From: Candidatus Nanoarchaeia archaeon
GTDB taxonomy: Archaea > Nanobdellota > Nanobdellia > Woesearchaeales > JAQUVJ01
Assembly (NCBI GenBank): GCA_028693395.1
Contig: JAQUVJ010000001.1
Coordinates: 46,387 to 110,386 of the forward strand
Direction: 5' to 3'
Length of the DNA: 64,000 nt
The notes beneath the pieces were generated by a model. That model was not told the DNA's origin. It did no database searches and saw nothing but the letters and a program-made list of their open reading frames with translations. This document shows, in pieces, positions 3,887 to 60,435 of this stretch (the stretch's first letter is position 1; every line of letters starts with the position of its first letter). The position numbers and the translations under genes were made by a program.

Positions 3887-6166
3887 TTAAGAATTATTTT
3901 TCTTTAATGGTTCTATATGTTTACATTTTGGATATCCACTACATCCATAAAATGCACCATAAATTCCCTTTCTTAAAATCAATTCTTTTCCACATTTTGG
4001 ACAAATCTTTTTTTCTTTTTCTATGTTATCTAAATCTACACCTTGATTTTTTCCAGAACAATCTTTGTTAATACAAACTTCATTTTTATTTTTTCCATTT
4101 GTAATTTTAACAATAGGATATCCACATTTTTCACATGCTTTTACATATTTGAAAACTTTTGCTTTTGGAAGTGAAACTTTTAATCCACAAGAATTACATG
4201 CTACAAAAAATCCATAAGGGCCTTTTTTTAATTCAAATGGTGCTTTACATTTTGGACATTCTCCAAAATTATTTTTTTGTTCAACGTGTTTTCTATTTGC
4301 AGATTCTAGTGATTTTCCTATTTCTTCTTCTTTTTCTTTAAATGATTTAAACATTTTATCTAAAACAATTTTTGCTTCATCAATAACATCTTGACTTGTT
4401 TTTTTATCTTTTCTAATATCTTCCATTTCTTCTTCAAAATGTCGTGTTAAATCTTCTTTTACTATCTCTTCACAATAAATTTCCATTGTTTCAGTTAATT
4501 TTATTCCTAATTTTGTTGCAGTTAAACTTTTTCCTTCAACATACTCTCTTTTAAATAATGTTTCAATAATATCTGCTCTTGTTGCTTTTGTTCCTAAATT
4601 TCTTTTTTCTAATTCTTTTAATAAGGATGCACTTGTATATCTTGATGGCGGTTGAGTTTCTTTTATATAACCAAATAAATTTTCTATATTTAATATTTCA
4701 TTTTCTTTAACTTCATACAAAGTCATATCTGTAAAACTTATTGGATAAACTTCTAACCATTTTTTTTCTTTAATTCTTGAAGCATTTGCTTGAAAACTAA
4801 CATCATTTACTATACCAATAATTGCTTGAGATTCTCTTGTCGCAGCTTCATAAAAACAAGCTAAAAATCTTTTTACGACTAAATCAAATAAATTTTGTTC
4901 TTCTTTTGATAAACTGTTTGGAATATTTCCTGTTGGATAAATAGCAGGGTGTGCTTCATCATCCTTTGGTCCTTCATTTGGATTTATTCTATTATTTTCT
5001 AATAAATAATTTGCAAATTTTTTATAATTTTGAAGTTCTGATATCTTTTGAATTATATTTTTTAAACCTAATGTTTTAGGTAATTTTTGAGAAGATGTTC
5101 TTGGATATGATATAAAACCTCCTAAATATAATTTTTCTGCTATATCTAATGTTTTTTTTGGATCATATCTAAACAATCTATGAGATTCTGTTTGGAAATC
5201 AGTTAAATTAAAAGGAAAAGGTGGATTTACTTTTGAATCTTTTTTGTTGACTTCAGAAACTTTTATTGTTTTTTTATCTTTTACTTTATCTAAAATTTCT
5301 TGACTTTGTTTTTCATCTAATTTATCCTTATATTTGAAAACGATTAAATTAGATTTTGATGTTTCAACAAAATCTTCTTCTGTGGATTCTGAATCATTTT
5401 TTTTCTTTTTTGTTTTCTTTTTTTCTTTATCTCTTTTATCAACTATTTGAAAATTATAATTTGTTTGATCTTTTGTTGCCTCTATTTCAACTTCATAATA
5501 TGTTTCTGGCTTAAAATCTAATATTTCTTTTTCTCTATCTACAATTATTTTTAGAGATGGTCCTTGAACTCTTCCCATTGATAAAAGTTTGAAAGAATTT
5601 GTTGCATTTTTCATTGCTAATGTTAGAGCTCTTGAAAAATTAATACCATAATACCAATCTAAAACGTGCCTTGTCATTCCTGCATAAGCTTGTCCATAAT
5701 CAATTGTTTTTAATTTATTTTCATATGCTTTTACAACATCAGGTTTTGTTAATGTCGAGAATTTCATTCTTTGAGCAATATCAGTATTAAAAATATGTTT
5801 TAAAATGTTGTAACCAATAACTTCCCCTTCAACATCATAATCTGTTGCAATTGTAAATTCATCTACTTCTTTTTTTAAAGATTGAAATAATTTCAAATAA
5901 GGTTTTGCATAATCTGCTCCCTTATTTACTTCACATGTTGGAGCCCATTCTACATCATATAAAGGATATTCAAAAGAATTTTTATTTTTTGATGTTAATG
6001 TAAATAAATGTCCAACACCAGATGCAACAATTATTTCTTTATTATCTCTTTTTATTTTATAATAAGGAGCTTTTCCATTTGATAACTTCGTTGAACCTTG
6101 TGTTGCAAGTGCTAATGCTATTTTATTTGCTTGAGAAGGTTTTTCACATATAATTAATTCTACCAT
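3887..6166 (-). CDS. topA: DNA topoisomerase type IA (TopA/Topo III-like) with C-terminal zinc ribbons
   Basis: 759 aa. N-terminal Toprim (MVELIICEKPSQANKIA, TDYDVEGE), a central topoisomerase IA core and three C4 zinc ribbons at the C-terminus (CPKCKAPF...CNSCG; CEKCGYP; CPKCGKEL...CSGYPKC). Confidence 0.85.
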   Translation of the reverse strand: MVELIICEKPSQANKIALALATQGSTKLSNGKAPYYKIKRDNKEIIVASGVGHLFTLTSKNKNSFEYPLYDVEWAPTCEVNKGADYAKPYLKLFQSLKKEVDEFTIATDYDVEGEVIGYNILKHIFNTDIAQRMKFSTLTKPDVVKAYENKLKTIDYGQAYAGMTRHVLDWYYGINFSRALTLAMKNATNSFKLLSMGRVQGPSLKIIVDREKEILDFKPETYYEVEIEATKDQTNYNFQIVDKRDKEKKKTKKKKNDSESTEEDFVETSKSNLIVFKYKDKLDEKQSQEILDKVKDKKTIKVSEVNKKDSKVNPPFPFNLTDFQTESHRLFRYDPKKTLDIAEKLYLGGFISYPRTSSQKLPKTLGLKNIIQKISELQNYKKFANYLLENNRINPNEGPKDDEAHPAIYPTGNIPNSLSKEEQNLFDLVVKRFLACFYEAATRESQAIIGIVNDVSFQANASRIKEKKWLEVYPISFTDMTLYEVKENEILNIENLFGYIKETQPPSRYTSASLLKELEKRNLGTKATRADIIETLFKREYVEGKSLTATKLGIKLTETMEIYCEEIVKEDLTRHFEEEMEDIRKDKKTSQDVIDEAKIVLDKMFKSFKEKEEEIGKSLESANRKHVEQKNNFGECPKCKAPFELKKGPYGFFVACNSCGLKVSLPKAKVFKYVKACEKCGYPIVKITNGKNKNEVCINKDCSGKNQGVDLDNIEKEKKICPKCGKELILRKGIYGAFYGCSGYPKCKHIEPLKKNNS

Positions 6167-16516: not shown

Positions 16517-17500
16517 TTACTTCCATGTTACATCAACATCATCAGTTCTTTCATATGGATCCATATATGCATGTTTTGCATCCATCTTAATACCTGATTT
16601 ATACATTTTATAACCTAAAATAGCAATCATTCCAGCATTATCCATTAAATATTGACCTTCTGGACAAAAATATTTTATATTTAAATCTTCACACAATTTT
16701 TTTGACATTTCTTGCAATCTTTTATTCATCGCAACACCGCCACCCAATACTAATTCTTTTATTCCAGTATGAGCAATTGCTCTTTCTGTGACTTCTAAAA
16801 GCATTGAATAAACAGTTTCTTGAATACTATAACAAATATCAGCTTTTGTTACACTTGGATCATTTAACAATCTCGTTCTTATATATGTTAAAATTCCTGA
16901 AAAAGAAACATCCATTCCTTTTACACTATATGGAAGTTTTATGAAATTTTGTGCTTTCAAAGATTCCTCATAAATTTTAGGACCTCCTGGAAATCCAAAT
17001 CCTAATAAATATCCTAAACTATCTAAAAAATTACCAATTCCTGTATCTAAGGTTTCACCAAAAACTCTATATCTTCCATTATTAAAAGCAATTATTTGAG
17101 TATTTGCACCCGATGCATACAATAAAAGTGGGTTCTCAAATTCTGAAAAGTATTTTCCAACTTCTAAATGAGCAATACAATGATTTACTGGAACTAATGG
17201 TACTTTAATCTTTTCAGATATAATCTTTGCAAACAATAATCCTATTCTTAAAGAATGACCAATACCTGGAGATGCTGAATAAGAAACGACATCTATATCT
17301 TTCAATTTTAATTCAGATTCTTTTAATGCTCTTTCTAATAACTCATAACACACTTCGATATGGTGATTCGCCATTTCTCTTGGAATTAATCCACCTTGCA
17401 ATGTTTTGTAGACATCTTTAATGTTAGATCTCACTTTTTTACCATCAAAAATAGCAATACCAAAAGTATGTGCTGTAGATTCAATTCCTAAAACAATCAT
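16517..17500 (-). CDS. kae1: tRNA N6-adenosine threonylcarbamoyltransferase Kae1/TsaD, not fused to a Bud32 kinase
   Basis: 327 aa. N-terminus MIVLGIESTAHTFGIAIFDG and the metal-binding His motif (HCIAHLE) typical of Kae1/TsaD. Confidence 0.85.
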   Translation of the reverse strand: MIVLGIESTAHTFGIAIFDGKKVRSNIKDVYKTLQGGLIPREMANHHIEVCYELLERALKESELKLKDIDVVSYSASPGIGHSLRIGLLFAKIISEKIKVPLVPVNHCIAHLEVGKYFSEFENPLLLYASGANTQIIAFNNGRYRVFGETLDTGIGNFLDSLGYLLGFGFPGGPKIYEESLKAQNFIKLPYSVKGMDVSFSGILTYIRTRLLNDPSVTKADICYSIQETVYSMLLEVTERAIAHTGIKELVLGGGVAMNKRLQEMSKKLCEDLNIKYFCPEGQYLMDNAGMIAILGYKMYKSGIKMDAKHAYMDPYERTDDVDVTWK

Positions 17501-18108: not shown

Positions 18109-19359
<1,251 letters not shown>

Positions 19360-26264: not shown

Positions 26265-29063
26265 CTAAAAGAAATTTTTATATTTATCAAAATCAATTAA
26301 CATATTTTTTCTTGTTTTTAAATTACATATTATAAATTTATTAACATCAGGCACAAAATCATTTAATTTTTGATAATCTGTTTCTCTTATCCAAGATCCT
26401 GAATTAATTATATCAATATTATTGTATCTTTCTAATATTGTTTTATGTAAATGTGCTGTATAAAAAATATCAATATCCTCTGGAATAAATAAGTAATCTT
26501 TTTCAGAATTTATGTATGAATATGTTGAACCATATTGCATGGCAAGATGACCTTTATTTAACAAATCTATTAAAAATTCTTTAAATCTTTTTTCTTCATT
26601 TTTAATATTATAATAATAATCTTCTTTTAGATATTTTAAAAAAGAACCTCCATGGTAATAAAATATTTTTATCATGTTTTCTTTGTTATCTTTTATCTCT
26701 ATAAAAGAAGGATTTGTAGTAAATGAAACATTTTCCAAAGAATATAATTTTTTATAATATTTTAATGGAAGTATTGGCTGTGGTTCTTCTAAGATTGATG
26801 TATCATGATTTCCTGGTGCTAAAATTATGTTTAAATCTTTTCTTAATGATTTTAAGATTTCATATAAATAATCAATTTGATTGTAAATATTTTTTATCTC
26901 CAAATCATTTTCTTGCTTTGGATAATTACCAATCCCATCTATTAAATCTCCTCCTAAAAATAAATAATCTATTGATAAACCTAATTTATTTAATTTTTCA
27001 CTTTTCGTTTTTCCATTTAAAAATTTAAAGAAATTTTTTATATCTTCGTAATTTGTATTTTTATTTCCAATATGAAGATCACTTGCAAAAGTTATTAATG
27101 AATTTGTTGTTAATGAATTTAATTTGTTTTTCTCTATTTGATTTATTATTATTTTGTCGATGATAAATAATTTTATGTTTTTATCAAAATGACCACTAAA
27201 TCCGCAAATATCATCTAAAAAGATTTTTCTTACATCAAAATCTTTACTTAAATTATTTGAAATAACTGCTTTTATATTATCTGTTTTATCTTCTAATGTA
27301 TAAACTAAATTACCTTTTTTTGACAAATGAAAATCACTAATCATTGCAACTATACTTACATCACCTAAATCAATTGTTTTTACTCTATTTATTGTATATA
27401 TATTTTTCAAATCTTTATTTTTTGATAATTTTTCATAAAAAACATCATATCTATTTCTAAAATGATCTATAAAATCTCTTGGGGTTAAATCTTTTTTGAA
27501 AGAAAAGTTTATGTTATTTATAGTTAATATATCTGGTTGATTTATTTTATTGTCTTTGTTTATTATTAATTTTTCATATATTGAATTATTAAATAGTTGA
27601 TATCTTTTTTTTATTTTTTCTATAATATTTTCATTAATGTTTCCTTTGAAAATTTCTAAATCATTATTTTTATTTTGATTAATTTTTTGATTTAATTTTT
27701 CATCATCACTAAGAAAATTATTATTATTATTATTATTATCGATATTTTTATTATCAATATTTTTATTATTTATTTTATTATCGTTATTATTGTTGTTATC
27801 ATTATTGTAATTATTTACTTCTTGAAATTTTTCTTTTTTATTTTTTTCATATTCTTCATATTTTTTATTTTCTTCATTTTCTTGATTTTCTTTATTTTGT
27901 TGATTATCTTCATTATTTTCATTATTTTCATTATATATTTTTTTTATATCTTTTTCATTAAAATATTCTTCTAAATCATCAATTGATAAAACAACTTCTT
28001 CATTATTATTATTATTTTTATTTTTATTTTTTTCGTTTCTTTTATTATTTTCAATATTTTCAATATTTTCATTAAAATCACTAAAATCAGAATCAGAATC
28101 AGAATCAGAATTCTCTAAACTTTCTTTTTGTAATTTCTCACTTTTTTTTTGATTTTTTTTGATTTTATTTTCATTAGCTTTTTTATTTGTTTTTATTAAT
28201 TCATCTATAACTTCTTCTATGTTTAAATTTAAATCTAATTTTGAAATAGTTTCTTGCATGAAATCTTTTATTTTTTCTTTATCTAAAGATAATTGTATTT
28301 GAGAATATTTTTCCCAATTTATTGATTTAATAATTATATTATTTGAAGTCCTATCAATTATATAATTTAAAAATGGTAAAAAAACAATGTCATTTTTCAT
28401 TGTTTTGAAAAACTTTTCTTTTTTTTGTTTAAAAGTTATTGTATCTTTGTTTATCTTTATTGTTTTTGCATTTTTATTTTTTTTTGAAAATTTAATAAAG
28501 AAATTAATTAACATATCAAAAAAACATTTGTCATCTATATCATATAAATGTCTAAAGATTTGAATTTCTTTTTTAGGATGCTTAGAAATTGTTTCTTCTA
28601 CTGTTGTTAAATAAAAACTTATTCTTTTTTTAAAATTACTTTTATATTTTACATAAATTTTTTTTTCAAAATCTTTATTTGTTAAACTTTCTTCTACTAA
28701 TTTTTCTATGAATTTATTATAGAATAATGTTAATATAAATGAATCTATATAAAAAAATTCAATATCTTCACTCTCACTTTTTTCTTTGTAATTTTCGATT
28801 AAATTTATTATAATATCTATTAATGTTATTTTTAATAATTTTGATATGAAATCTATTTGATAATAATTTAAAAAATCTTTTTCGTTAATTATTCCTTCAT
28901 TGAAATAAAATTTATGATTTTCTTCATCAAAGTTTTGTTGTAAATAATCCATATCGATTAAATCAATTGATAAACTTTCAATTAATTCTACAAATGAATT
29001 TAAATTACCATACAAATAATTTTTTGAATCTAATTGTTCTTCTAGATATTTTATAATTTCCAT
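26265..29063 (-). CDS. DNA polymerase II (PolD) small subunit DP1 with a long N-terminal extension
   Basis: 932 aa. The C-terminal half has an OB fold plus calcineurin-like phosphoesterase motifs (ITFASDLHIGN, LFLGGDLIDGIG, LAPGNHD, HLHK). The N-terminal ~500 aa are non-canonical and carry D/S/N/E-rich low complexity. Confidence 0.75.
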   Translation of the reverse strand: MEIIKYLEEQLDSKNYLYGNLNSFVELIESLSIDLIDMDYLQQNFDEENHKFYFNEGIINEKDFLNYYQIDFISKLLKITLIDIIINLIENYKEKSESEDIEFFYIDSFILTLFYNKFIEKLVEESLTNKDFEKKIYVKYKSNFKKRISFYLTTVEETISKHPKKEIQIFRHLYDIDDKCFFDMLINFFIKFSKKNKNAKTIKINKDTITFKQKKEKFFKTMKNDIVFLPFLNYIIDRTSNNIIIKSINWEKYSQIQLSLDKEKIKDFMQETISKLDLNLNIEEVIDELIKTNKKANENKIKKNQKKSEKLQKESLENSDSDSDSDFSDFNENIENIENNKRNEKNKNKNNNNNEEVVLSIDDLEEYFNEKDIKKIYNENNENNEDNQQNKENQENEENKKYEEYEKNKKEKFQEVNNYNNDNNNNNDNKINNKNIDNKNIDNNNNNNNFLSDDEKLNQKINQNKNNDLEIFKGNINENIIEKIKKRYQLFNNSIYEKLIINKDNKINQPDILTINNINFSFKKDLTPRDFIDHFRNRYDVFYEKLSKNKDLKNIYTINRVKTIDLGDVSIVAMISDFHLSKKGNLVYTLEDKTDNIKAVISNNLSKDFDVRKIFLDDICGFSGHFDKNIKLFIIDKIIINQIEKNKLNSLTTNSLITFASDLHIGNKNTNYEDIKNFFKFLNGKTKSEKLNKLGLSIDYLFLGGDLIDGIGNYPKQENDLEIKNIYNQIDYLYEILKSLRKDLNIILAPGNHDTSILEEPQPILPLKYYKKLYSLENVSFTTNPSFIEIKDNKENMIKIFYYHGGSFLKYLKEDYYYNIKNEEKRFKEFLIDLLNKGHLAMQYGSTYSYINSEKDYLFIPEDIDIFYTAHLHKTILERYNNIDIINSGSWIRETDYQKLNDFVPDVNKFIICNLKTRKNMLIDFDKYKNFF

Positions 29064-30827: not shown

Positions 30828-32234
30828 ATGAACATAAAAGAAATCAAATTAGAATTGTTAGATACAATTTATTCTAACCTAGATGAAAAAAAAAATAAAT
30901 CTATAAATAGTTTTATTAAATCATTAAATAATATAATTCTAGAAAATAATCTTCCTATTTTTCTAAAAGTGGGAGGTAGTTATGCAAAACAAACATTTCT
31001 GGGAAATGATTTTGATGTTGATGTATTTCTTAGAGTTAAAAATGATGAAAAAAAAAATGAATCTTTTGATGATATAATTACAAAATTCATTGAAATATTA
31101 AAATTAAAATATCTAAAAATAAATAAGATTCATGGATCAAGAGATTATTATCAGTTTGTAAAAGATGATGTAAAATACGAATTGGTTCCTAATAAATACA
31201 TTGATGATTTATCACAGGCAACAAATACTACTGATTATAGTCCTTTTCATGTTGATTTTTTAAAAAAAGAAATGCTAAAAAACAAAAAATTAAATGATGA
31301 AATAAGAATTACAAAAATGTTTTTAAAAGCTTGCAATTGCTATGGAGCAGAATCATATATTAATTCTTTTTCTGGACATAGTCTTGATATTTTAGTTGCA
31401 TATTTTAAAAATTTTGAAAATACATTAGAATTTCTTTCTAAAATCAATATTAGTAAAAAATATTTAATTGATATTAGTGATTTTTATAAAAACGATTTTA
31501 CTAAAAATATTGATTTCTCAATTTCAAAAGAAGATTATGAAAAGATAAAAAAACAATTTGATAATAAGATTAATTCTTCTTTAATTATTATAGATCCTAT
31601 TGATAAAAATAGAATTGCATCATCAGCATTAAATAATTACAGGATTTTAAAAATAAAATATTATTCTAAATTATTTTTAGAAACTCCAAGTTCATTTTTT
31701 TTTGAAAGAAACATTAAATTCAAGAAAAAAAGTAATAATATAATTTTAAAATATGAAAAAAATAATGAAAACATGGATATTTGTGGAGCAAATGTTTTAT
31801 CAATAAAAAGAAAATTATCTAATTTTCTAAAGGAAAACGATTTTGAAGTTTTAGATAATTTTGATTTCACAAATTTTAGATTTTTTAAAAGAGTAAATAA
31901 AAGAAAAATTGATGAATTTAATTCTAAACATGAAGATGTTTTTTTTGATGGTAATCATTTTTATTTGAAAATTATTTTAAAAAAAAATAAAATTTCAAAA
32001 TACAAAATAATAAAAGGTCCTATTTTTGAAATGGAAGAAAACACAAAAGAAGAAATAAAAAATTCAATAGAATCCTTTAAAAACTCACATAAAAATACAT
32101 TCATTAAAAATGAAGAAAATAAATATTATATTTTTGCTAAGGAAAAAAGAGAGAAAAGAAAATTAAGATTTTTCATAGAAGATTTCTTTGAAAAAAGAAA
32201 GGATATTGAAAAATACGTAAATAGAGTTAAATAG
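30828..32234 (+). CDS. cca: Archaeal class I CCA-adding tRNA nucleotidyltransferase
   Basis: 468 aa. N-terminal NTase signature VGGSYAKQTFLGNDFDVDVFL (GS...D.D), and a size and architecture typical of archaeal CCA enzymes. Confidence 0.55.
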   Translation: MNIKEIKLELLDTIYSNLDEKKNKSINSFIKSLNNIILENNLPIFLKVGGSYAKQTFLGNDFDVDVFLRVKNDEKKNESFDDIITKFIEILKLKYLKINKIHGSRDYYQFVKDDVKYELVPNKYIDDLSQATNTTDYSPFHVDFLKKEMLKNKKLNDEIRITKMFLKACNCYGAESYINSFSGHSLDILVAYFKNFENTLEFLSKINISKKYLIDISDFYKNDFTKNIDFSISKEDYEKIKKQFDNKINSSLIIIDPIDKNRIASSALNNYRILKIKYYSKLFLETPSSFFFERNIKFKKKSNNIILKYEKNNENMDICGANVLSIKRKLSNFLKENDFEVLDNFDFTNFRFFKRVNKRKIDEFNSKHEDVFFDGNHFYLKIILKKNKISKYKIIKGPIFEMEENTKEEIKNSIESFKNSHKNTFIKNEENKYYIFAKEKREKRKLRFFIEDFFEKRKDIEKYVNRVK

Positions 32235-32334
32235 AAAATGAAAAGATAAATAGAATTAAAATTTTAATAATAAATAAAATTTTTAGTAATATTTATAAAC
32301 CCCCTGTTTATCTAACATTCATTGAAACTCAAAT

Positions 32335-32439
32335 GGGCCTGTAGCTTAGCCTGGTTGGAGCGCTGGTCTTATATGGCTACGTTTTAAACATAGGTTCTAA
32401 GAGAACCAGTGGTCCTGAGTTCAAATCTCAGCAGGCCCA
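32335..32439 (+). tRNA. Intron-containing tRNA with anticodon UAU (tRNA-Ile decoding AUA); intron of about 30 nt (32374-32403) at the canonical 37/38 position
   Basis: Acceptor GGGCCTG/CAGGCCC, D-stem GCTT/GAGC, anticodon stem CTGGT(32363-32367)/ACCAG(32405-32409), loop C-T-TAT-A (U33 and purine 37 conserved), T-arm CTGAG-TTCAAAT-CTCAG and discriminator A. The anticodon-loop CTTA can pair with intron TAAG to form a BHB-like helix. Confidence 0.7.
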
Positions 32440-32448
32440 GATTTTTAT

Positions 32449-32523
32449 GCCCGAATGGTGTAGTCCGGCCAATCATTCGGCCCTTTCGAGGCCGAGACCC
32501 GGGTTCGAATCCCGGTTCGAGCA
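32449..32523 (+). tRNA. tRNA-Glu (anticodon UUC)
   Basis: The D-arm GGTGTAGTCCGGCCAATCAT is identical to the conserved archaeal tRNA-Glu D-arm. Anticodon stem CGGCC/GGCCG with loop CTTTCGA, and T-arm CCGGG-TTCGAAT-CCCGG. The acceptor has one C-A mismatch at 3:70. Confidence 0.8.
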
Positions 32524-32686
32524 TTAAAATAAATTGGGATTTTTTCCCAATTTTAATAATTCTAGGTTTGCTTTGTTTATTTTAATTTATTTTAAATTTC
32601 TAAAAACAACTAAAATTTACATAAAAAATTAATAAAATTCAACAAAAAAAAGAAAATTTTATATTTAATAAAGAATATAAAAATTC

Positions 32687-33204: not shown

Positions 33205-34134
33205 ATGGATAAAAGAAGTATTCTATTCGTATGTACAGGTAACATATATCGAAGTTTAACTGCACAACTTGCTTTTCAAAAATTTTTAAATGATAATAAT
33301 ATAAAAAATTGGAATGTAAAATCCGCAGGAATCAAAGCAAATAAAGAAGAAATTCATGATGGTGTAAAAAAAACATTAAAAAAATATGGATTTGATAAAA
33401 TAAATCACAAACAAACAAAACTTACTAAAAAAATATTAAACGAATATGATTGTGTTGTTGCGATGGCACAAAATCATGTTGATTTTATTAAAAATGAATT
33501 AAAATTTAATAATGTATTATTATTTAATGAATTAGCAATTGATAAAAAAACATCAATCTTGGATATTGAAGACAATGTAAAAGATTACAAAACTAATCCT
33601 GAAGCAGTAGAGAAAGAAATGGAAAAAACTATAAAATACATTTTTAACAATATAGAAAAATTATATAAAAAAGTCTTAGAAAGATTCTATATTTTCTGTG
33701 ATTTTATTGAAAATAATATTTCTCATAGAAATGGTTTTCCTTTTATAAAACTTTACGAGACAAAAAATGCAATTTCTTTTATGTCAATTGATATTCCTCA
33801 AAAAGTTGATGGACACATACTTGTAATTCCTAAAAAAAGATATAATGATTTTAAAAAAATACCTTTAAATGTACTTAGCGAAATAATGGAAATTATAAAA
33901 AAAATAGCAATAGTAATTGAAAGAAATTATGGAGGATACAACATTTTGTTAAACAATAGTACAGATGCTGGTCAATATATTTTTCATACACATTTTCATA
34001 TTATTCCAAGAATTTCTAATGACAATATAAGAATAGAATTATGGAAAAGAAATAAAATAACAAAGGAAGACTTCATCTTATTAAACAACAAATTTAAAAA
34101 AGAAATGGAAATTATAGATAAAGAAAGAAATTAA
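33205..34134 (+). CDS. Fusion of a low-molecular-weight protein tyrosine phosphatase/ArsC-like domain and a HIT (histidine triad) domain
   Basis: 309 aa. N-terminal CX5R P-loop (LFVCTGNIYRSLTAQ) and a C-terminal histidine triad (FHTHFHIIPR). Confidence 0.6.
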   Translation: MDKRSILFVCTGNIYRSLTAQLAFQKFLNDNNIKNWNVKSAGIKANKEEIHDGVKKTLKKYGFDKINHKQTKLTKKILNEYDCVVAMAQNHVDFIKNELKFNNVLLFNELAIDKKTSILDIEDNVKDYKTNPEAVEKEMEKTIKYIFNNIEKLYKKVLERFYIFCDFIENNISHRNGFPFIKLYETKNAISFMSIDIPQKVDGHILVIPKKRYNDFKKIPLNVLSEIMEIIKKIAIVIERNYGGYNILLNNSTDAGQYIFHTHFHIIPRISNDNIRIELWKRNKITKEDFILLNNKFKKEMEIIDKERN

Positions 34135-34795: not shown

Positions 34796-35836
34796 TCAAA
34801 ATAAAATCCATATAATTAACAAAGAAATAACACATGAAATTGTTAAAGGCGGAATTGCTGGATAAAATTTTCCTTTTCTTGTAAACATAAAAAAAATAAA
34901 CAAGCCTATTGAAACAATTAAAGAACTTAAAAAAGCAGGAAATAATCCAAAAGTCTTTAATATTGCAACATTAAAAAGCAAAGGAAATGCAATATCTCCA
35001 CCACCTAATATTGCAACACCCAAATCATCTTTATTTTTATTTTCTATTTCATTATTTAAATTATTATTATCATCATCATTATTATTATTATTATTATCAT
35101 CATCATTATTATTATTATTAAGAACTTTACTAAGATTATTTAATTCTAAATTTTCATTTTTTACATTAGCATTTACATTTGTATTTTCATTTGCATTTTT
35201 TTTAAAAAAAGAACCATCAAAAAAAGATTTTTTACTAATTTTAGTTGGCATCATTATTCCCATAAATAATTTATTGTTTGTTATTTCTTTTGCCATAAAA
35301 ACCATGTGTTTTGATTTAAAGACTGCAATATAATCATAAATTGAAATTATGAAAAGTAAAAATAATGCACTTTTTATATTAATTATATCAGAAAATAATA
35401 TTGCAAACGAAGGATATATTAAAATTTCAGTAAGACTATTTATTAAAAAATTATTTCTTTTTATCTTCATATATGTTAAAAAAACAGATAAAAAAATTCC
35501 ATAATAATAATTTGTTAATTCACTTATTGTTATAAACATTGTAAGAAAAATACCTACACTAATCCAACCTTTCCACATTTTTGTTTTTTTATTTTTTAAA
35601 AGAAAAATTAAAATAATTGTTCCAAGAAACATTCCAATTAAAATATTAATAATTGCTTGCCAAACATCCATTTGCTCTCTAACAAATCCACTATTTAATT
35701 CATCATATTCAATAACTTTTTCACCTTTATCATTTGTTGAAAAAGTCATTGTTGTACTTGAAAGATATACTCCAAAGATTTGTATAATAAAAAATAAAAT
35801 TACAAGAAATATTGTTGTTTTTATTTGATGTTTCAT
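34796..35836 (-). CDS. Presenilin/signal-peptide-peptidase-like intramembrane aspartyl protease (A22 family) with a poly-N/D loop
   Basis: 346 aa polytopic protein carrying a YD motif (ISIYDYIAV), a GxGD motif (LGGGDIAFP) and a PAL-like motif (LFPAFL) in successive TM helices. The loop contains NNNNDDDNNNNNNDDDNNN. Confidence 0.5.
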   Translation of the reverse strand: MKHQIKTTIFLVILFFIIQIFGVYLSSTTMTFSTNDKGEKVIEYDELNSGFVREQMDVWQAIINILIGMFLGTIILIFLLKNKKTKMWKGWISVGIFLTMFITISELTNYYYGIFLSVFLTYMKIKRNNFLINSLTEILIYPSFAILFSDIINIKSALFLLFIISIYDYIAVFKSKHMVFMAKEITNNKLFMGIMMPTKISKKSFFDGSFFKKNANENTNVNANVKNENLELNNLSKVLNNNNNDDDNNNNNNDDDNNNLNNEIENKNKDDLGVAILGGGDIAFPLLFNVAILKTFGLFPAFLSSLIVSIGLFIFFMFTRKGKFYPAIPPLTISCVISLLIIWILF

Positions 35837-55128: not shown

Positions 55129-57558
55129 TTAAATCTTTAAAATATAAACAGATGATATTTTATCTCCATCATTTAACTTTACAAGTCTAACTCCTTGAGT
55201 ACTTCTTCCTATTATTGACATTTGATTTGAAAATATCCTAATAGCTTTTCCTTGTTTTGTTAATATCAAGATTTCATCTTCATCACTTACACTTCTAACA
55301 TCGACAACTTTTCCAGTTTTCTCTGTTACGTTAAGATTTCTTATTCCTTTTCCTCCTCTGTGAGTATGTCTATATTCTTCAATTGCAGTTCTTTTTCCAT
55401 AACCATTTTCTCCAATTGTAAATAAACATGAACCTTTCTCACAAATTCCCATTGAAACAACTCTATCTTCATAAGCAAGTCTAATTCCTATAACTCCTTT
55501 TGCAGTTCTTCCCATTGCTCTAACTTCTGTAGAATTATAAACAATAGCTTGTCCTAAAGATGTTGTCATGAATATATCACAATCTTGTGTTTCATCTATT
55601 ATTTTTACTGAAATTAAATAATCATCTTCTAATCCTATTGCTATTTTTCCATTTGATTGAATTGATTCAAAGTGTGATAAATTTACTTTCTTAACAAAAC
55701 CTCTTCTTGTTGCAAACATAACAAATTTATTTTCATCTGTAAAATCTTTTTTGTCAACTTTTAAGATATTTGTAATTGTTTCACCTGGACCTAATTTCAT
55801 TAAATTTATTGCAGGTTTTCCTTTTGCAATTCTTGAAGATTCTGGTATCATATATGTTTTTAAAGAATATACTTTACCTAAATTTGTATAAAAATGCAAT
55901 ATATCATGAGTATCTGCAACAACTACTTCATTAATGAAATCATCTTTTTTAAGATCACCAGCACTAATACCTTTTCCTCCTCTGTGTTGTGATTGATACA
56001 ATTCTAATGGCATTCTCTTTAAATAATTTGCATCTGTTAATGTTATTACATATGTTTTATTTTCAAGAAGTTCTTCAACATTGAAATCTCCCATTGCAGT
56101 TGTTATTTCAGATTTTCTTTCATCTCCAAACATTCCATCAATTTCTTCTAACTCTTGTTTTATAATTGAATCTATTTTTTTAGAATCAGCAAGTATTGAT
56201 CTTAATTCTTCAATTAATTTCATTAAATCATTAAATTCTTCTCTTAGTTTTAAAGTCTCTAAATTTGTTAATTTTTGTAATCTCATTTCTAAAATTGCTC
56301 TTGCTTGTTCATCATCAATTTCAAAATTTTTTATTAAATTATCTTTTGCAATATTTGCATCTTCAGATTCTTTTATTAATTTTATTGCTAAATCTATATT
56401 ATCTAAACATTTAATTAATCCTTCTAAAATGTGAGCCTTACTCAAAGCTTTTTTAAGTTCATACTCTGTTCTTCTAACAACAATTAATCTTCTATGTTTT
56501 ATAAATTCTACAATTAATTCTTTTAAATTTAATACTTTTGGTGTATTATTTACTAAACATAAATTTTGAATTCCTATTGATGTTTTTAGTGCAGAATGTT
56601 TTAATAAATTATTCATTACAAATTCAGCATTTGAATCTCTTTTAATTTCTATTACTATTCTAATTCCTTCTCTGTTTGATTCATCTCTTAAATCTGAAAT
56701 TCCATTAACTACTCCATTTTTTACAAGATCTGCAATTTGTATAACTAATGTTGATTTATTTACTTGATAAGGAATTTCTGTAACAATTATTGCTTCCTTT
56801 TTTCCTATTTCTTCAAAATGATATTTTGATTGAATTGTAACAGACCCTCTTCCTGTCCTATACATTCTCATTAATCTTTCATCTTTGAAAATAATTCCTC
56901 CTGTTGGAAAATCTGGACCTCTTACGTATTTTAACATTTCATCTATTTCTACATCTTCATTTTCTAAAAATAATTCAATTGCTTTATTTATTTCTTTAAA
57001 GTTATGAGGAACCATATTTGTTGCCATTCCTACCGCAATACCACTTGTTCCGTTTATTAATAATTGTGGAATTCTTGTTGGTAAAAATTCTGGTTCTTTT
57101 AATGATCCATCAAAGTTATCTCTAAATTCAACAGTTTCTTTGTCGATATCTGCTAACATATATTCTGTTAATTTGTCCATTTTTACTTCTGTGTATCTCA
57201 TTGCTGCTGGACTGTCTCCATCAATTGAACCGAAGTTTCCTTGACCATTTACTAGTTTATATCTTAATGAGAAATCTTGAGCCATACGAACCATTGCATC
57301 ATAAACTGCAGTGTCTCCGTGAGGATGATACTTACCTAATACTTCTCCTACAACTCTCGCACTTTTTTTGTAAGGTTTATTATAATTTAATCCTAATTCA
57401 CTCATTGAATAAAAGATTCTTCTGTGAACTGGTTTTAATCCATCTCTTACATCTGGAATTGCTCTTCCTACAATTACAGACATCGCATAATCCAAATATG
57501 ATTTTTTCATTTCTTTTGTTATAGAAACATCAATGATTCTTCTATCGTCGTCTTCCAT
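55129..57558 (-). CDS. gyrA: DNA gyrase subunit A
   Basis: 809 aa. N-terminal breakage-reunion domain with AAMRYTE (active-site Tyr) and a C-terminal beta-pinwheel repeat domain. Confidence 0.9.
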
Positions 57559-59328: not shown

Positions 59329-60435
59329 TTATTTTTTCTTTATTTTACAAATGAAAAAACCCTCAGTATCATTATTATGAGGATAAATTCTTAAAACATT
59401 TTCAATTCTTTCATCTAATTTTTTCCCTTCGAATTCTAAAATTGGTTTGCCTTTTGTAATTGATGGTAATTCTATTTTTTCTATTTCAATATTTTTATAT
59501 TTTTTTAATAAAAAATCTATTACAAATTCGTTTTCTTCTGGTTCTAAAGAACAAGTACTATAAACTAATGTTCCACCTATTTTTAAAATATTAAATGCTA
59601 CATCAATCAATTTATATTGTGCTTTTTGCATTCTTATAATTGCTCCTTTATTCCAAATTTTTAATGTGTTTGTAGATTTTCTAATTGTTCCACTTCCACT
59701 ACATGGGGCATCTAATAAAACTTTATCAAAAAATCCATCTTCTGATGTAATATTTTTTTCATCAGATTTCATATTTTCATAAACAAAATTATTTGACCAT
59801 GATACTTTTTTTAAACTATCTTTATTTGATTTGTGAATCTTTAATTTTTCTTTATTATCATTCTTTATCATGTTTCCAAAAAAAATACCATTCATGTTTG
59901 TTATTATTGTGTTTTTTATTCCACATCTACTAATGTTAACTTTTAATGAACCCAATCTTGAAAAGGATAAATCATTTGAAAAGATAAGACCTTCATTTTC
60001 CATCATTGCAGCAATTTGTGTAGTTTTTGAACCTGGAGCTGCTGCCATATCTAAAACAATTTCACCTGGTTTTGGATCTAAAACAATAGGAGGAATCATT
60101 GATGCTGCTTCTTGAACATAAATAAATCCCATTTTATGTAACATTAGATTTCCTACATCTTTTCTTGTTTTTCCTCTTATATAATATGCATCTTTTGCAA
60201 AAGGAATTTCTTCTATCATCCATTCATCTGATAATTTTTCAATTATGTTAGAATCAGCTTTTAATGTATTTACTCTAATACATCTATCTAAATATGAGAA
60301 ATTATATTTCATAAATTTTTGATATTCTTCTTGTCCTAAAATATTTTCAAATCTATTTATGAAATCTTTTCTTAAATCTTTTGAATCATAATTAAAAGAA
60401 ACTAAGTCGTGTTGTAATTTTGTTCTTATTACCAT
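59329..60435 (-). CDS. NOL1/NOP2/Sun-family RNA m5C methyltransferase
   Basis: 368 aa. SAM motif DMAAAPGSKT and the catalytic region DAPCSGSG...TCS. Confidence 0.75.
   Translation of the reverse strand: MVIRTKLQHDLVSFNYDSKDLRKDFINRFENILGQEEYQKFMKYNFSYLDRCIRVNTLKADSNIIEKLSDEWMIEEIPFAKDAYYIRGKTRKDVGNLMLHKMGFIYVQEAASMIPPIVLDPKPGEIVLDMAAAPGSKTTQIAAMMENEGLIFSNDLSFSRLGSLKVNISRCGIKNTIITNMNGIFFGNMIKNDNKEKLKIHKSNKDSLKKVSWSNNFVYENMKSDEKNITSEDGFFDKVLLDAPCSGSGTIRKSTNTLKIWNKGAIIRMQKAQYKLIDVAFNILKIGGTLVYSTCSLEPEENEFVIDFLLKKYKNIEIEKIELPSITKGKPILEFEGKKLDERIENVLRIYPHNNDTEGFFICKIKKK

Follow-up and report, generated by a model that had tools for sequence, protein, structure and literature searches.

An intron-containing tRNA-Ile(UAU) gene as the probable AUA decoder of a very A+T-rich DPANN archaeon

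How does an archaeon with a very A+T-rich genome read its many AUA codons as isoleucine without also reading AUG? A pair of tRNA genes raises this question in the window, the whole 64,000-nucleotide (64-kb) stretch of DNA that was analysed, which has a G+C content of about 21%. In the 45 open reading frames of the window (17,886 codons), AUA has a frequency of 49.3 per 1000 codons, accounts for 44% of the isoleucine codons and is the eighth most used codon overall, which bears out the original prediction that AUA would be very frequent here. The first of the two tRNA genes (32335-32439) is, with high probability, a real and functional gene for the AUA-decoding tRNA-Ile(UAU) of this DPANN archaeon.

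The Rfam covariance model for tRNA (RF00005) matches positions 32335-32439 of the forward strand with 56.7 bits (E = 1.4e-9, gathering threshold 29). The match spans model positions 1-71 of 71 and places an insertion of 31 nt in the anticodon loop. ARAGORN in its default mode missed this tRNA and detected only the tRNA-Glu(UUC) of the pair; with intron detection it calls a tRNA-Ile(tat) with a 30-nt intron, TGGCTACGTTTTAAACATAGGTTCTAAGAG, between TTATA and AACCA. This is exactly the intron proposed by the original prediction, which had noted that a canonical fold requires the removal of about 30 nt (32374-32403) at position 37/38. The UAU anticodon and the isoleucine isotype that it had assigned are also those returned by the intron-detecting search it had suggested. 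The gene consists of the following parts:

32335-32439, + strand: complete tRNA-Ile(UAU) gene, tRNA positions 1-73 (Rfam RF00005 and ARAGORN -i)
32335-32373, + strand: 5' exon, tRNA positions 1-37 (Rfam, ARAGORN -i and pair list)
32370-32372, + strand: anticodon TAT, followed by A37 at 32373 (pair list and ARAGORN -i)
32374-32403, + strand: intron of 30 nt at the canonical 37/38 position (ARAGORN -i and Rfam insertion)
32404-32439, + strand: 3' exon, tRNA positions 38-73, with discriminator A73 (Rfam and ARAGORN -i)

Based on a check of the pair list, every pair in the cloverleaf stems of 32335-32439 is a standard one. Splicing at these positions leaves the anticodon loop C-U-U-A-U-A-A, with the anticodon UAU, U33 and a purine at position 37. 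Reading of both tRNA genes showed that neither encodes the terminal CCA. We also considered an intron-encoded box C/D guide of the tRNA-Trp type. It is ruled out, since the intron contains neither box C (RUGAUGA) nor box D (CUGA), with no TGATGA and no CTGA in it.

The same task, reading AUA as isoleucine without reading AUG, is performed in archaea by the TiaS/agmatidine system with tRNA-Ile2(CAU). There the decoding nucleotide is a modified C34, whereas the gene described here encodes a U34. No component of the TiaS system lies within the window: Pfam scans of the 45 ORFs, together with a lax re-scan of the ORFs lacking a hit, found no TiaS domain in the 64 kb, and neither Rfam nor ARAGORN found a CAU tRNA there. 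The UAU tRNA could nevertheless be a supplementary AUA decoder that coexists with TiaS and tRNA-Ile2(CAU) encoded elsewhere in the genome. The window covers just 64 kb of that genome, and the extreme demand for AUA decoding could favor two decoders. Against such coexistence stand the two negative searches of the window and the archaea already known to encode a UAU anticodon. ARMAN-2, -4 and -5 were reported in 2011 to possess tRNA-Ile(UAU) and to lack both tRNA-Ile(CAU) and TiaS (PMC3239211), and the textbook examples of a tRNA-Ile(UAU) ("Ile3") without tRNA-Ile2(CAU) come from Nanoarchaeum equitans and Korarchaeum cryptofilum (PMC6000648, PMC8450103). We regard coexistence as improbable. By analogy to ARMAN, N. 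equitans and Korarchaeum, we infer that the UAU tRNA replaces the TiaS/agmatidine system rather than supplementing it. Our literature search on TiaS in DPANN archaea and on TilS in CPR bacteria found no relevant papers.

The closest described counterpart of the window gene is found in ARMAN-2, a member of the Micrarchaeota. Its pre-tRNA-Ile(UAU) contains a 25-nt intron at position 37/38 within a strict hBHBh' motif and is cut in vitro by its own endonuclease; the tRNA was taken to decode AUA in place of TiaS and tRNA-Ile(CAU) (PMC3239211). Both organisms belong to the DPANN archaea and share the UAU anticodon and the 37/38 intron in an hBHBh' motif. They differ in that the window intron is longer (30 versus 25 nt), its inner helix h' is shorter and irregular, and the window belongs to a Nanoarchaeia MAG with a G+C content near 21%; in addition, splicing was demonstrated in vitro for ARMAN-2, whereas the window motif is known from its sequence. 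N. equitans and K. cryptofilum, which we set beside the window gene by description, likewise encode the UAU anticodon but belong to different lineages, and the tRNA-Ile(UAU) gene of Korarchaeum also carries an intron (PMC6000648). Among bacteria, the tRNA-Ile2(UAU) of Mycoplasma mobile has an unmodified U34, and discrimination against AUG is achieved by the cognate ribosome and an arginine residue of IleRS (PMC3575796). As in the window, a UAU anticodon reads AUA in an A+T-rich genome, which in M. mobile is reduced and lacks the C34-modifying enzyme; unlike the window gene, that of M. mobile is bacterial and has no intron. Eukaryotic nuclear tRNA-Ile(UAU) resembles the window gene in both its anticodon and an intron at 37/38, but its splicing mechanism differs from the archaeal bulge-helix-bulge (BHB) route. 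Eukaryotic tRNA splicing relies on pairing between anticodon and intron, and the endonuclease uses a different, ruler-like mechanism.

The assignment of the anticodon depends on where the intron is cut. The exon-intron junctions of the window gene are able to form a 3-4-3 BHB motif, in which a 4-bp helix is flanked by two 3-nt bulges with one splice site in each. The elements of this motif are:

32368-32371, + strand: 5' strand of the central BHB helix, C32 U33 U34 A35 (CUUA), paired with 32398-32401
32398-32401, + strand: 3' strand of the central helix, UAAG, intron positions -6 to -3 (pair list and relatives)
32372-32374, + strand: 5' bulge of 3 nt, U36, A37 and the intron U (UAU; geometry derived by hand from the pair list)
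32402-32404, + strand: 3' bulge of 3 nt, A, G and A38 (AGA; pair list)
32375-32376, + strand: 5' strand GG of the inner helix h', paired with UC at 32396-32397

The outer helix h is the 5-bp anticodon stem. The inner helix h' comprises only 2 bp (G-C and G.U) and is followed by an irregular hairpin (32377-32393), so that the motif stands between the "strict" and the "relaxed" hBHBh' type. In a BHB, cleavage by the archaeal splicing endonuclease follows the second nucleotide of each bulge. From this rule, cleavage is predicted after 32373 and after 32403, which would yield the UAU anticodon.

The relatives of this gene keep the same register. Among the 121 related pre-tRNAs listed, intron position -3 is a G without exception (121/121) and -4 is a purine in 120; A or G stands at -5 in 117, T at -6 in 94 and C at -7 in 100, while -1 is free of constraint and -2 is never a G. 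The h' pairs are found in the relatives listed as well: pairing is seen at i2:-7 in 96% and at i3:-8 in 76%, the latter exceeding the shuffled expectation. Pairing of the loop segment CTTA with the intron segment TAAG, as described in the original prediction, thus corresponds to 32368-32371 and 32398-32401, in a register that holds in the 121 relatives listed.

The proposal to confirm the motif by folding the pre-tRNA met with divided success. All pairs of the BHB are standard, but the energy model picks a shifted register: in the nearest-neighbor model, the minimum free energy (MFE) structure of the anticodon arm reaches -8.9 kcal/mol versus -4.2 kcal/mol for the BHB. A pair diagnostic of the MFE register, C32:-1, can form in only 32% of the relatives listed. 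Since the comparative data from 121 pre-tRNAs keep the BHB register, we favor the BHB over the MFE register. A thermodynamic fold, whether of the whole pre-tRNA or of the arm, was rejected as a criterion for the BHB, because the relatives do not conserve the MFE register. That MFE predictions miss a BHB is common where the bulges are stabilized by the enzyme, and the MFE is no defining criterion of the BHB in the literature.

The shifted MFE register is also one of two observations that speak for removal of the intron at other positions, in which case the mature anticodon would not be UAU; the second is that ARAGORN calls several orthologues Ser(UGA), Thr(UGU) or Ala(UGC). These alternative calls, however, all come from genes with CTTATA in the loop, and for the window gene itself ARAGORN gives UAU. 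A 3-4-3 BHB together with a loop of 7 nt containing U33 and A37 results only from the UAU register, and it is this register that is conserved in the 121 relatives listed. Other splice sites are thus very unlikely. We think equally little of the idea that the locus is a decaying or silent tRNA pseudogene: it has a perfect cloverleaf with standard pairs throughout and a high covariance model score, its orthologues are conserved across DPANN archaea, and the cell needs an AUA decoder.

If the anticodon is UAU, the tRNA should carry isoleucine. The meaning of AUA in this organism can be read from the CTP synthase (PyrG) encoded in the window. In an alignment of 120 sequences (119 homologues), the columns under the 22 AUA codons of the window pyrG gene contain I (44%), V (23%) and L (13%), similar to the AUU columns (I 56%, V 30%, L 8%) and unlike the AUG columns, in which M reaches 61%. 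AUA codons align with I, V and L in the homologues and are hence read as isoleucine. Reassignment of AUA, for example to methionine as in many mitochondria, with a UAU tRNA of another isotype, has nothing but the unusual anticodon to recommend it and can practically be dismissed, since methionine is not even among the six commonest residues at the AUA columns of PyrG.

Plain identity to other tRNAs proved uninformative as a test of the isotype, with isoleucine and asparagine bodies equally close: with two archaeal tRNA-Ile(GAU) found on related contigs the tRNA body shares an identity of 0.72-0.73, and with a tRNA-Asn one of 0.72. Because identity does not discriminate, the isoleucine assignment is based on the anticodon, the reading of AUA as isoleucine, the annotation of the family as tRNA-Ile and the presence of A73, A37 and A38. 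The gene also has C4-G69 and U12-A23, which, like A73, A37 and A38, count among the bacterial isoleucine identity elements. Position A37 follows U36, and the modification t6A37, made with Kae1/TsaD, is expected on such an A37. A Kae1/TsaD gene (16517-17500) lies within the same 64 kb as the tRNA gene, as do genes for a UPF0020-type methyltransferase (18166-19359) and an RsmB/F-like methyltransferase (59329-60435).

The original prediction had described genomically encoded UAU tRNA-Ile as known from only a few lineages. This is contradicted by the 2011 report on ARMAN (PMC3239211) and by two scans that recovered the gene across the DPANN archaea. The first scan used a degenerate Ile-like 5' half ending in YTTATA on one-genome-per-species contigs and found at least 119 stretches. 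The second used CTTATA followed by TG, the intron type of the window gene, and matched at least 120 metagenome contigs. All counts from these scans are lower bounds and not frequencies. Together, they revealed at least well over 150 intron-containing tRNA-Ile(UAU) genes across DPANN, with at least 133 distinct intron-bearing pre-tRNAs, at least 32 of which have a further intron in the T-loop.

By record title, about 50-51 of the first-scan matches listed are archaeal, with Woese-, Pace-, Nano-, Aenigm-, Micr-, Undin-, Iain- and Marsarchaeota as well as one member of the Thermoplasmata. Among 51 archaeal matches listed, 28 are interrupted after position 37 by an intron of 21-138 nt and 14 contain no intron. 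The other nine escaped the first parser; the genes inspected among them contain a T-loop intron in addition to the one at 37/38. The 37/38 intron is present in all 16 listed matches with a Woese-, Pace- or Nanoarchaeota label. The remaining 70 or so first-scan matches listed bear bacterial titles, mostly of CPR/Patescibacteria, and are intron-less with an Ile-like body. Saccharibacteria, Peregrinibacteria, Uhrbacteria, Levyibacteria and other CPR groups are represented (matches listed, L001-L119), which suggests, from the gene sequences, that TilS-independent AUA decoding may be widespread there. An intron-containing tRNA-Ile(UAU) is hence an already described gene type and the norm in DPANN, and the wide distribution in DPANN and CPR implies that surveys of cultured archaea, which call tRNA-Ile(UAU) "nearly absent", understate it.

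Some further features of these matches concern their annotation and structure. A second intron in the T-loop (at about position 58-60) is present in at least 32 of 141 parsed orthologues (L053, L058, L060, L066, L067, L091, L100, L107, L112 and more than 20 metagenome loci); the window gene has none. ARAGORN -i mis-splices the orthologues L154, L188, L187, L114 and L208 and reports them as Ser(tga), Thr(tgt), Ala(tgc), Leu(aag) or Ser(aga), and automated annotation of DPANN MAGs may consequently under-count tRNA-Ile(UAU). MAGs labelled "uncultured Methanosarcinales" carry a DPANN-type tRNA-Ile(UAU), and MAGs labelled "uncultured Gammaproteobacteria" carry the CPR type (L032, L053, L060, L082, L112 and L113; L001, L007, L046 and others); the record titles of such assemblies look unreliable.

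Besides the BHB, the intron family shows a second possible pairing between intron and exon, which we refer to as the decoy helix:

32375-32379, + strand: intron positions i2-i6 (GGCUA), complementary to exon positions 32-28 (32368 down to 32364; predicted hairpin and covariation)

This helix is mutually exclusive with the anticodon stem and with h', and i3-i5 effectively mimic positions 39-41. The segment is predicted to be able to take the place of the anticodon stem's 3' strand and so to form a decoy anticodon hairpin. Among the 112 relatives listed, intron positions i2-i5 (GGCU in the window) covary with exon positions 32-29 in the tRNA-Ile(UAU) intron family. In the 112 distinct sequences listed, the five decoy pairs are formed in 79.8% compared with 74.9 +/- 0.7% after shuffling, and the covariation score is 0.271 compared with 0.186; in neither case did any of 500 shufflings reach the observed value. 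Controls in which the helix was slid along the sequence gave at most 51% pairing and a score of 0.141. When position 30 is a C, seven of nine relatives listed have a G at i4 (Fisher p = 2e-7, relatedness ignored), and when position 29 is a C, six of seven have a G at i5 (Fisher p = 7e-5, relatedness ignored); these covarying changes at C30 and C29 probably represent few independent events. The decoy helix is absent from 17 other tRNAs with canonical introns of the same contigs, in which pairing is at chance level (0.53, 0.24, 0.35 and 0.41). A mirror-image decoy at the 3' junction, between intron positions -8 to -13 and exon positions 38-43, was discarded, as pairing in the relatives does not support it.

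The decoy helix could serve as a placeholder during transcription or as an alternative conformer recognized by a modification enzyme, or it may be a relic. In yeast, the intron of tRNA-Ile(UAU) is required for the formation of pseudouridine 34 and 36 by Pus1 (PMC9602550). By analogy, the archaeal intron could act as a conformational switch, either for an intron-dependent modification of the anticodon or for ordered co-transcriptional folding. This active role is suggested by the retention of the intron in all Woese-, Pace- and Nanoarchaeota genes listed and by the covariation of the decoy helix; we nonetheless consider it a long shot. If true, the intron would be tied to the accurate discrimination of AUA from AUG. 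Intron retention together with the decoy helix is the sole lead from this locus that might merit an experiment.

The second tRNA of the pair lies immediately downstream, in tandem and at a distance of 9 nt as the original prediction had stated. The locus around the pair contains the following features:

32292-32299, + strand: candidate archaeal TATA box TTTATAAA, 36-43 nt before the mature 5' end of tRNA-Ile (read from the sequence)
32440-32448, + strand: spacer GATTTTTAT of 9 nt between the two tRNAs, with a T5 run inside (sequence)
32449-32523, + strand: tRNA-Glu(UUC) without intron, anticodon at 32485-32487 (Rfam, 53 bits, and ARAGORN)
32531-32554, + strand: inverted repeat AAATTGGGA/TCCCAATTT with a T-rich loop, followed by T residues (9-pair stem 32531-32553)

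A tRNA-Glu(UUC) is found downstream within 120 nt in 22 of the 124 relatives listed, with spacers of 1-98 nt, so that the tandem recurs in part of the lineage. Because the 9-nt spacer leaves no room for a second promoter, co-transcription of tRNA-Ile and tRNA-Glu is the simplest reading and most likely applies here. The TTTTT run in the spacer could, however, end some archaeal transcripts before tRNA-Glu; the spacers of the listed relatives with this tandem are mostly without T runs. The TATA box candidate would imply a leader of about 13 nt. In 130 related loci listed, hexamers resembling a TATA box form a cluster between -35 and -29 relative to the start of the tRNA. The best match in the window lies about 10 nt further upstream than this cluster, within an A+T-rich background. 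Judging from its sequence, the inverted repeat after tRNA-Glu likely marks the end of the transcription unit, as a putative terminator. The tRNA-Glu(UUC) itself shows a C3.A70 mismatch in the acceptor stem, plus a U13.U22 mismatch flagged by Infernal. The tRNA-Glu(UUC) genes of relatives have C3-G70, and C3.A70 may reflect either genuine variation or a mistake in the assembly.

The archaeal origin of the window is evident from its proteins, which include the hallmarks Orc1/Cdc6, the PolD small subunit, a CCA-adding enzyme, Kae1, CysRS and others. Its PyrG matches MDD3263313.1, encoded on a 125.8-kb contig of a Candidatus Nanoarchaeia archaeon MAG, with 100% identity, and the next relatives are proteins of Nano-, Pace- and Woesearchaeota. 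A comparison of the window proteins with 239 loci listed recovered no close relative of the window, and L186 alone shares Cdc6 and PolD-small beside the tRNA. The neighborhood has several other features. The gene for the archaeal class I CCA-adding enzyme (30828-32234) ends 100 nt upstream of the two CCA-less tRNA genes. A PolD small-subunit homologue of 932 aa (26265-29063) and a presenilin/SPP-like protein (34796-35836) contain long low-complexity inserts of Asn, Asp, Lys and Glu, as expected of a genome with 21% G+C. This archaeon also has genes for a DNA gyrase A subunit (55129-57558) and a bacterial-type topoisomerase I (3887-6166), and in a fusion protein (33205-34134) a HIT domain is joined to a low-molecular-weight phosphotyrosine phosphatase domain.

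Based on these observations, we propose the following pathway. The tRNA would be transcribed from an A/T-rich promoter, most likely jointly with the tRNA-Glu(UUC) located 9 nt downstream, and RNase P together with 3' processing would free both tRNAs. The archaeal splicing endonuclease would cut at the two predicted sites, and ligation of the RtcB type would generate the loop CUUAUAA. Because no CCA is encoded, CCA would then be added, possibly by the enzyme encoded 100 nt upstream. Finally, the tRNA would be charged by IleRS and would read AUA, presumably without misreading AUG. Pfam scans of the 45 ORFs found no gene for the splicing endonuclease EndA, for RtcB or for IleRS in the 64-kb window.

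The intron-containing tRNA-Ile(UAU) is the rule across the DPANN archaea, and an intron-less version is common in CPR bacteria. The window gene is one more case of the DPANN solution, an encoded UAU instead of agmatidine, and matters little on its own; it places this solution in a genome that uses AUA as one of its most frequent codons. If the decoy helix is functional, it would link archaeal tRNA introns to the maturation of the anticodon, as in eukaryotes.
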